From contig JBDHVY010000001.1 of NCBI GenBank assembly GCA_039809905.1, positions 1,196,745 through 1,228,744 on the forward strand: DNA of 32,000 nt, in the 5' to 3' direction. Within the stretch, counting starts at the first letter, position 1; each line of letters starts with the position of its first letter. The notes under the pieces are model-generated. The model was not told the DNA's origin and made no database searches. It saw only the letters and a list, made by a program, of their open reading frames with translations. Shown here one piece after another: positions 23,948 to 25,017 of this stretch. This DNA is from Candidatus Babelota bacterium (lineage in GTDB: Bacteria; Babelota; Babeliae; Babelales; Vermiphilaceae). The position numbers and the translations under genes are program-made.

Positions 23948-24862
23948 ATGGGTAATTATATGAATACTAAGCAAATACAAACTAAATTTGAAGCATATCT
24001 TTTAACAGAAAAACGAGTTTCTAAAAATACATTTCTTTCATATCAAAAAGATTTGAATCAATTTATTGATTTTATCGAAAAAAAAGCAGTTTCTTTGCAT
24101 ACAATTACCAGTGATGATTTAAAGACATTTGTTCATTATTTGTATGGTCTTAAGCTTTCTGCAAACAGTATTGCTCGTAAGATATCAACTCTCAAGACTT
24201 TTTTTAGCTATTTAAAAACACATTTTGATATAAAAAACAGTGCAAAAGAATTGCATATTCCAAAAATTGAAAAGCGGTTGCCAATCTATTTAACACAAGA
24301 CGAAGTAACCAAAGTATTAATATATTCAGAAAAAGATAGATCTTTCCTGGGCATTCGCAATTCAGTGATGCTTTATTTACTTTATAGTTCAGGTATGCGC
24401 GTCAGCGAATTAATTAATATCAAAATATCAGATATTCATTTTGACACGCGTTTTATCTCTATTGAGGGTAAAGGAGGAAGACAGCGTATGATACCGCTCC
24501 CTGAAGTAATAATGAATTTGTTGCATGATTATATACAAAAACATGCATATAATGATTTTCCTACATCTATTGATCCTATTTATTTATTTCCGATATTGTA
24601 TGGGAAAAAAATAAAACCAATTTCTCGGCAATCATGTTGGATTATTTTAAAAAGGCTTTGTGAGCAAGCAGGAATAAAACGTGCTATTTCACCACATCAA
24701 CTACGTCATTCTTTTGCAACACACATGCTTGAAAAGGGAGTTGATTTACGATCATTACAAGTACTACTTGGTCATGAAGAGATTACCACAGTAGAAGTAT
24801 ATACTCATGTTGAAACATCACAGCTGAGAAAAATATATGATAAAAAACATCCGCGGTCATAA
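23948..24862 (+). CDS. XerC/XerD-family tyrosine site-specific recombinase
   Basis: N-terminal SAM-like core-binding domain (FEAYLLTEKRVSKNTFLSYQKDL) and catalytic residues in context (GMRVSEL, HQLRHSFATHML, LLGHEEITTVEVYTH), ending KKHPRS as in chromosomal Xer proteins. Alternative start is ATG 23960. Confidence 0.88.
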   Translation: MGNYMNTKQIQTKFEAYLLTEKRVSKNTFLSYQKDLNQFIDFIEKKAVSLHTITSDDLKTFVHYLYGLKLSANSIARKISTLKTFFSYLKTHFDIKNSAKELHIPKIEKRLPIYLTQDEVTKVLIYSEKDRSFLGIRNSVMLYLLYSSGMRVSELINIKISDIHFDTRFISIEGKGGRQRMIPLPEVIMNLLHDYIQKHAYNDFPTSIDPIYLFPILYGKKIKPISRQSCWIILKRLCEQAGIKRAISPHQLRHSFATHMLEKGVDLRSLQVLLGHEEITTVEVYTHVETSQLRKIYDKKHPRS

Positions 24863-24940
24863 ACAAAGTGATCCTTCATTTCTAGGAGTTTTTCTTAAAA
24901 AGGGGTCCCCATAGGGGAACGAAGTGATATATGGGGTTAA

Positions 24941-24974
24941 AAAAATATATGATAAAAAACATCCTCGATCATAA
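24941..24974 (+). repeat. Displaced copy 2 of the xer recombinase 3' coding end
   Basis: 32/34 nt identical to 24829-24862. Both differences are synonymous (CCG>CCT, CGG>CGA), so the copy still reads KIYDKKHPRS-stop. Confidence 0.85.
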
Positions 24975-24988
24975 CTTTAGCTGTTTTT

Positions 24989-25017
24989 TATATGACAAAA
25001 AGTATCCGAGATCATAA
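24989..25017 (+). repeat. Displaced copy 3 of the xer recombinase 3' coding end
   Basis: 24/29 nt identical to 24834-24862 and reads YDKKYPRS-stop. Four of the five changes are synonymous (GAT>GAC, AAA>AAG, CGG>AGA) and one is H>Y. Confidence 0.7.

Follow-up and report, generated by a model that had tools for sequence, protein, structure and literature searches.

Orphaned copies of the xer 3' end stacked upstream of dnaN in a Babeliales genome, a likely case of 3'-end displacement

Strings of orphaned 3' regions left behind by displacement have been described at rhs and type VI secretion system (T6SS) loci, and homology-facilitated illegitimate recombination (HFIR) was proposed as the route (Kirchberger et al. 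2017, PMC5361080); C-terminal displacement in rhs/cdiA-type loci is cited in that paper from Jackson et al. (2009, PMC2935791). A comparable arrangement was analysed here in a window of 32,000 nt (the whole stretch of DNA under analysis, positions 1,196,745 to 1,228,744 of contig JBDHVY010000001.1, forward strand, assembly GCA_039809905.1) from a Candidatus Babelota bacterium, a metagenome-assembled genome of Babeliales (Dependentiae/TM6), in which the gene xer, encoding a Xer-family tyrosine recombinase, is followed in the spacer before dnaN by two further copies of its own last codons. These two orphans (copies 2 and 3, the live gene end being copy 1) are on balance probably non-functional former xer 3' ends that were pushed downstream in turn, a process referred to below as 3'-end displacement. 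They are most likely a scar of known kind and involve no new molecular system, and the orphan tails themselves probably do nothing. The initial annotation, which had drawn attention to the copies from the sequence alone, recognised no described system in them, but the displaced strings at rhs and T6SS loci provide one (PMC5361080).

The likeness to the rhs, cdiA and T6SS loci lies in a live gene followed on the same strand by stacked fragments that would be its own former 3' ends, in a new end that would arrive with inserted DNA and be anchored by conserved upstream coding sequence, and in a presumed oldest fragment that is furthest downstream and still joined to the original flank. Unlike those loci, where the incoming ends specify varied toxin tips accompanied by immunity genes and turnover is selected, the xer tails encode the same peptide. 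The fragments here are 29-34 nt long with a cargo of 14-78 nt (1.1 kb at rny, a second gene of the window with an orphaned tail), no benefit is evident, and the scars are located at a housekeeping gene of a reduced intracellular genome.

The features of the xer locus are given below in window coordinates; L076 and L080 are two related loci that share part of the layout.

23948-24862, plus strand: xer, Xer-family tyrosine recombinase, 304 aa (Pfam Phage_integrase, 1e-45, and Phage_int_SAM_1)
24829-24862, plus strand: copy 1, the live 3' end of xer (KIYDKKHPRS-stop), used as the reference copy
24863-24889, plus strand: segment X, non-conserved DNA directly 3' of the live stop, unalignable among the window, L076 and L080
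24890-24940, plus strand: element A, a hairpin element of about 50 nt, TCTTAA..GGGGTCCCCATA..loop..TATGGGGTTAA (nhmmer, E=2e-11)
24941-24974, plus strand: copy 2, orphaned xer tail, 32/34 (94%) identical to copy 1
24975-24988, plus strand: 14-nt linker CTTTAGCTGTTTTT between copies 2 and 3 (from the sequence)
24989-25017, plus strand: copy 3, orphaned xer tail (YDKKYPRS-stop), in the ancestral place, directly joined to the conserved dnaN upstream region (from alignment)
25018-25095, plus strand: ancestral xer-dnaN spacer, AAGCTTTTTATTTTT ... GGTTATACT (25055-25063) ... ATAAGGA, then the dnaN ATG; a block conserved in all relatives
25096-26229, plus strand: dnaN, DNA polymerase III beta clamp (Pfam; synteny across relatives)
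26251-27372, plus strand: recF, downstream of dnaN (Pfam)

Repeat searching and alignment gave the same coordinates, copy number, spacings, synonymous changes and in-frame TAA of each copy as the initial annotation. All three copies terminate in TCATAA, each with its own stop codon, and the gaps are 78 nt from the copy 1 stop to copy 2 and 14 nt from copy 2 to position 24989. The two differences between copies 1 and 2, CCG>CCT and CGG>CGA, are both synonymous. Taken as an in-register repeat (24984-25017), copy 3 matches copy 1 at 24/34 positions (71%), or at 24/29 over 24989-25017, with GAT>GAC, AAA>AAG and CGG>AGA as synonymous and CAT>TAT as non-synonymous changes. P values were calculated against a baseline of about 20% synonymous changes among all possible single-base changes in the xer tail, which gave P=0.04 for copy 2 (2/2 synonymous) and P=0.008 for copy 3 (at least 4/5 of synonymous type). 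A perfect run of 23 nt is shared by copies 1 and 2 at a distance of 112 nt; copy 3 shares short runs only.

The 233-nt spacer was shuffled 5000 times with dinucleotides preserved, and no shuffle matched the 34-nt tail at more than 23/34 positions. Sites of at least 24/34 on both strands of the window were confined to the three copies, and a degenerate back-translation of YDKKHPRS-stop matched these same copies only (0, 0 and 1 mismatches; expected 0.00), so that chance is excluded as their source. The tail thus occurs at three sites only in the window, and the possibility raised earlier that it might be a generic intergenic repeat present at many loci unrelated to xer was not borne out. The 331-nt region was also identical in two assemblies with an identical Xer protein (L001 and L002), and the array is therefore no assembly artefact.

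For comparison, about 45 related xer loci of Babeliales (the relatives) were collected from genome and metagenome collections. The order xer-dnaN-recF is kept in most of them. The xer protein of the window is matched by NCBIfam models of the XerD, XerC and XerA types, with the tyrosine-recombinase subfamily model above its cutoff. Across the relatives the Xer C-terminus YDKKHPRS-stop is invariant and LRKIYDKKHPRS-stop nearly so, and the third codon positions of the live tail are freely variable. E. coli XerC and XerD have the HPR(A/S) end in common with this tail, and the strong constraint at the protein level would follow from that.

In most relatives only about 75-80 nt separate the xer stop from dnaN. 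The conserved block of this spacer, which looks like a predicted dnaN promoter and ribosome-binding region, adjoins copy 3 and not the live stop in the window. In alignment, copy 3 and its downstream flank were collinear with seven relatives without an insertion (L160, L161, L075, L005, L084, L008 and L089), from their live tail through the spacer to the dnaN start. Copy 3 is therefore the old gene end in its original, ancestral position, and the other two copies came in upstream of it, copy 2 before copy 1. No orphan tail is present in most relatives, the closest ones included. The xer/dnaN junction and the rny/ymdB junction described below are variable insertion points across the relatives, with spacers of 61-860 nt and unrelated cargo. 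The xer-dnaN spacer of L004 contains an open reading frame (ORF) that reads like a nitroreductase, from sequence reading alone.

Each copy could pass for the live tail of one relative or another: copy 2, over its last 30 nt, matches the live tails of L084 and L090 at 30/30 positions, copy 1 matches those of L076, L088 and L089 at 29/30, and copy 3 matches that of L008 at 26/30 (counted by hand). The left ends of the similarity differ among copies (-34 and -29, and -27 at rny), and in both xer events the right end coincides exactly with the stop codon. Sequences 3' of the TAA in copies 1 and 2 were unrelated in alignment to each other and to the flank of copy 3. An end at the stop codon is accounted for if the tails come from lineages diverged by about 20%, because coding tails stay alignable at such a distance and intergenic DNA does not. 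Since the similarity stops at the stop codon, the differences are synonymous and the rny orphan keeps the states of relatives, the live and orphan tails would be different alleles and not copies made on the spot. The proposal in the initial annotation that the orphans had evolved under coding constraint did not hold. With one and the same peptide encoded by every Xer tail of the clade, a synonymous pattern is expected, and the corresponding orphans in L076 and L080 carry the non-synonymous changes I>T and S>L (L076) and a 12-nt deletion (L080), so that they were not kept as coding sequence.

The order in L076 and L080 is live tail, unalignable segment, element A, orphan tail, element B, a 7-nt tail remnant (ATCTTAA) and the ancestral spacer. 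Element B, a second hairpin element, lies between the two orphan tails at the place of the 14-nt linker of the window, and most of copy 3 is missing from both loci. The L076 orphan matches copy 2 of the window at 30/34 positions, and element A joins the orphan at an identical point in these two loci.

A parallel case was claimed for rny, and a similar pattern is indeed present there. The features are as follows.

10392-10421, plus strand: live 3' end of rny (EKRSIEYAR-stop; sequence and family search)
10422-15040: accessory DNA with a 236-aa orphan ORF, an ORF with a ribosomal protein S10 fragment, a WD40-like 400-aa ORF, a 442-aa ORF without family and a 241-aa ORF with a weak DnaJ match
11258-11527, plus strand: 89-aa ORF with a signal-peptide-like N-terminus, residues 41-88 of which match ribosomal protein S10 (PF00338, 2e-10; NCBIfam rpsJ below cutoff)
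11549-11581, plus strand: orphaned rny tail (EKRSIEYARH-stop), its first 27 nt identical to the live tail of L159
11598-11604, plus strand: ATGAATA, probably a remnant of the old ymdB start, assigned by position, 7 bases being too short to be significant alone

Positions 10392-10418 and 11549-11575 match at 24/27; the three mismatches lie at third positions and are all synonymous (P=0.009). The orphan is identical (27/27) to the L159 live tail and equals the consensus of five relatives, from which the AAG and TCG codons of the live window tail are absent; three random G>A decays would all fall at third positions with P=0.006. The constrained live tail holds all three differences and the unconstrained orphan none, which points to two different alleles brought together at rny. 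With copy 3 of xer collinear with insertion-free relatives and the rny orphan carrying the allele of five relatives, the idea of the initial annotation that successive former or foreign 3' ends were stacked by insertion or replacement was upheld.

In L155, L156, L157 and L159, rny abuts or overlaps ymdB, the rny TAA of relatives being followed by (T)ATGAATACA of ymdB. The window has the end of rny at 10421 and the ymdB start (ATGAATACA) about 4.6 kb further on, at 15041. Judging from this synteny, the orphan is the mark of the old rny/ymdB junction, now split by these 4.6 kb, and the old ymdB start at ATGAATA is likely now the start of the WD40-like accessory ORF. The insert between the live and orphan tails (about 1.1 kb) contains a terminator hairpin, the 236-aa ORF and the 89-aa ORF with the S10 fragment; it is a patchwork and not a recognisable mobile element. 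A homologue search with the 236-aa cargo ORF, made to find a donor, gave one distant match only. In L158, a close relative, a foreign signal-peptide gene lies directly after rny.

The frequency of such tail echoes was estimated by scanning 223 genes of the window and of the loci of related genomes for a match of at least 23/30 to the gene tail within 2.5 kb downstream. Echoes were found for 5/223 genes compared with 6/1338 internal control segments (Fisher P=0.013). Those in L004 and L106 were rejected as tandem paralogous genes, internal control segments of the same genes matching too, which left window rny, window xer and L076 xer as true echoes (3/223). The phenomenon is real but rare, and the recurrent mechanism in this genome that had been suggested from two cases within 32 kb is too strong a statement.

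The segments between the xer copies had been described as so small that whatever was inserted had been lost or was never large. Their sizes (78 and 14 nt) stand, but the 78-nt segment is not anonymous, as it holds element A, a member of a conserved dispersed family. The dispersed repeat of this region is this hairpin element and not the xer tail. Using nhmmer, 12-15 copies were found in the spacers of related loci, namely in the xer-dnaN spacers of L003, L004, L076 (twice), L079, L080 (twice) and L162 and in the dnaN-recF spacers of L003, L006 and L087. The family consensus is TCTTAA..GGGGTCCCCATA..TGAACGAAGTG..TATGGGG(T/C)TAA, and the copies are intergenic, between co-directional core genes in Babeliales. 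An 11-nt partial copy of the element loop is present at 24862-24872 (AACAAAGTGAT), at the start of segment X. The copies are located as follows.

L003: 3973-4023 and 5213-5277
L004: 4580-4630
L006: 5250-5299, and 3918-3966 on the minus strand
L076: 3430-3481 and 3512-3561
L079: 3422-3471
L080: 3430-3479 and 3499-3548
L087: 2505-2553
L162: 964-1012
Window: 6799-6846 (weak)

The stem of the element is 8 bp long (CCCCATAT / ATATGGGG). Pairing was found in 92.5% of cells compared with 84.5% in shuffles (0/500 reached the observed value), and fell to 28-54% when the 3' partner was slid by 1-3 columns. Compensatory changes are present together with many G-U pairs; the latter are compatible with pairing on the gene strand only, which suggests a role of the element at the RNA level. 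Local RNA structure spanning the copies was not notable (z-scores of -0.9 and -1.5).

Repetitive extragenic palindromic (REP) sequences and bacterial interspersed mosaic elements (BIME) of enterobacteria, which are known end-points of rearrangement, resemble the 50-nt element in being short conserved hairpins in the spacers of co-directional genes, sometimes paired. They differ from it in that the sequences are unrelated, that the G-U pairs fit the gene strand only, and that the element ATG serves as the recF start in L006 and L087, where ATGGGG of the element is the in-frame start of recF. No REP-associated tyrosine transposase (RAYT) was seen among the window ORFs searched. In L004 (4480-4580) the element lies within the conserved block upstream of dnaN, between ..TATAACG and TACGTTATACT; the 9-nt direct repeat that borders it (ATGCATAAG) is a further small duplication where DNA was inserted. 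A likeness between the xer tail and the hairpin loop (ATATGA..AAG, about 11/28 by eye) was taken as chance.

In the 3'-end displacement that is proposed for the locus, the xer stop would originally have stood about 78 nt upstream of dnaN, as it does in most relatives and at copy 3. Twice, DNA would then have been joined upstream of the tail in use at the time, about 30-34 nt before the stop codon. Each incoming stretch would have supplied a complete xer tail together with short downstream sequence including the small RNA-hairpin element, so that the gene retained an intact essential C-terminus (HPRS) and the old tail was stranded. The donor DNA would have come from a diverged relative, with one homologous crossover inside xer and the other end joined illegitimately upstream of the resident stop; only events that restored the intact, essential C-terminus would have survived. 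From the allele comparisons, the incoming tails appear to have been foreign, and HFIR is most likely the route by which they were joined. The junctions are in A-runs (TTAA/AAAAAT), where microhomology is trivial in DNA of 30% GC.

Several observations weigh against this proposal. Sliding identity and third-position identity were flat along live xer, dnaN and rny, giving no foreign segment upstream of the tails, with little power since identity to the nearest relatives reaches only about 80%. A hairpin element stands in front of every displaced tail (tail-element-tail-element-tail, as reconstructed from the window with L076 and L080), and plain HFIR does not predict such an element. These intracellular bacteria are not known to take up or recombine DNA. 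The window, L076 and L080 were grouped with a bootstrap of 37% only in a star-like tree, and the closest relatives by amino-acid identity (L160 at 87%, L161 and L075) have a plain short spacer without orphans. The orphans of the window and L076 match at 30/34 compared with 50-65% identity at third codon positions (P about 2e-4), which, if they are orthologous, is more similarity than neutral DNA should retain; the excess could be due to gene conversion by the live tail at a distance of 112 nt, to events that were younger or independent, or to constraint of some kind. Finally, the live tail has G and the orphan A or T at 5/5 sites that differ from the adjacent orphan (rny AAG/AAA, TCG/TCA and GCG/GCA; xer CCG/CCT and CGG/CGA), and such a live-G bias is odd for a genome of about 32% GC.

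Some of these points would be accommodated by local duplication, through slippage or unequal exchange at a REP-like hairpin element or as a long target duplication at element insertion, followed by divergence in which only synonymous changes survived in the live copy and conversion by the live tail kept the orphans coding-like. The element in front of every orphan, the coincident junction of element A and orphan in the window and L076, the 23-nt perfect run that would permit conversion between copies 1 and 2 at 112 nt, window and L076 orphans better conserved than synonymous sites, and live genes in which no foreign mosaic was found are all consistent with it. The explanation is nevertheless rather doubtful, because mechanical duplication has no reason to halt exactly at the stop codon, as the xer similarity does. 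The spacings of 112 and 43 nt are not a constant period and Tandem Repeats Finder returned nothing, so that a simple tandem repeat array was rejected. Copies of the element in L079, L162, L006, L087, L003 and L004 are without long flanking duplication, and at rny it is the orphan that keeps the allele of relatives and the live copy that changed, although an unconstrained copy should change faster. A closer tie to the hairpin is conceivable because the element precedes each displaced tail, the junction is the same in two lineages and the orphan is better conserved than synonymous sites. It would then be a mobile or recombinogenic module that lands in the last 30 nt or so of a gene and rebuilds or carries the 3' end, or else the orphans would be kept by selection or gene conversion for a role upstream of dnaN; this is considered very unlikely. 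Local duplication and an element-coupled mechanism taken together hold a modest minority share of the probability.

Direct repeats of a gene 3' end around inserted DNA are a classic sign of integrase-mediated insertion, and as at attL/attR such repeats flank the inserted DNA here and the gene stays intact. The tails of xer and rny might accordingly have been attachment sites of integrative elements that bring a replacement 3' end with them, as at tRNA genes, or sites of elements that use Xer in the manner of integrative mobile elements exploiting Xer (IMEX), with the cargo later deleted. The 1.1-kb rny insert with its ORFs and the same element/orphan junction in the window and L076 would fit such integration scars. 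They are quite unlikely, however, since no integrase, transposase or reverse transcriptase family other than xer was found among the window ORFs of at least 89 aa searched with Pfam and NCBIfam over the 32 kb, and the xer inserts of 78 and 14 nt are too small for an element. The target tails of xer and rny have no common motif, the repeats vary in length (34, 29 and 27 nt) without a dyad-symmetric core in the repeat search, the xer similarity is bounded by the stop codon and not by a crossover core, and relatives with larger inserts at the xer/dnaN junction gave no tail echo of at least 20/30. It is highly improbable that the copies are functional sites, whether dif-like Xer-binding sites, regulatory sites of dnaN or part of a 28-aa micro-ORF (MGLKKYMIKNILDHNFSCFLYDKKYPRS-stop; 24931-25017, plus strand, 28 codons) that runs from the element ATG to the copy 3 TAA. 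They do adjoin xer and lie upstream of dnaN, the window and L076 have unexpectedly similar orphans, there are weak promoter-like hexamers that overlap copies 2 and 3, and short tandem repeated sites beside a Xer recombinase recall the tandem dif sites of IMEX (CTXphi, the gonococcal island). Unlike those, the repeat is xer coding sequence and is absent from nearly all relatives, and its only dyad is a 6-nt outer palindrome (TATGAT/ATCATA, 14 nt apart) in place of the 11-6/8-11 layout of dif. GC skew is positive across the window except for one near-zero bin, and cumulative skew has no reversal, so that the site is neither a replication origin nor a terminus. The third positions of the live tail are free in the approximately 45 relatives, and there is therefore no DNA-level constraint embedded in it; on these grounds (dyad, skew and free synonymous sites) tandem Xer sites of the dif/IMEX type were rejected. 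The orphan is missing from most relatives, even the closest, L080 has lost 12 nt of it, and L076 and L080 lack most of copy 3. In a promoter and terminator scan of the region, matches were no commoner than in shuffles except for a minus-strand terminator-like hairpin inside element A, and Rfam (24700-25200, E up to 10) returned sub-threshold noise only. The micro-ORF is not conserved in L076 and L080, the former reading ATG TGG GGC TAA. In the window it reads copy 2 out of frame and copy 3 in the xer frame, and is probably fortuitous.

If 3'-end displacement is the origin of the copies, orphan tails provide a simple sequence mark of past insertions at tight core-gene junctions. Because the stacked tails look like alleles of different lineages, they hint at exchange of DNA between diverged lineages of the obligately intracellular Babeliales. 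The mark consists of a tail echo, a similarity that ends at the stop codon and synonymous differences, and could be used to date or count insertions in reduced genomes that have no recognisable mobile-element genes.

Two further candidates were rejected. A template/variable repeat pair of a diversity-generating retroelement was dismissed, as there is no reverse transcriptase in the searched ORFs, the changes from copy 2 to copy 1 (T>G and A>G) are not confined to adenines, and the repeat is only 34 nt long. A tRNA or transfer-messenger RNA target was dismissed, as neither gene is present in the window.

A second, GC-rich repeat (..CGTTCGTCCTGAGC(C/T)TGTCGAAGGA..) was seen in certain relatives, where it occupies a xer-dnaN or dnaN-recF spacer and is sometimes present twice (L007:3906-4060; L081:3243-3540; L004:approximately 5895-5935), and looks like a small dispersed element. 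Internal coding repeats are present in two minus-strand ORFs of the window. One lies at 20051-20389 (ORF 19958-20449), with a period of 30-93 nt, in a histone H1-like gene of HC2 type (Pfam HC2 below cutoff), and the other at 31290-31621 (ORF 31084-31716), with a period of 57 nt, in an ORF without family.

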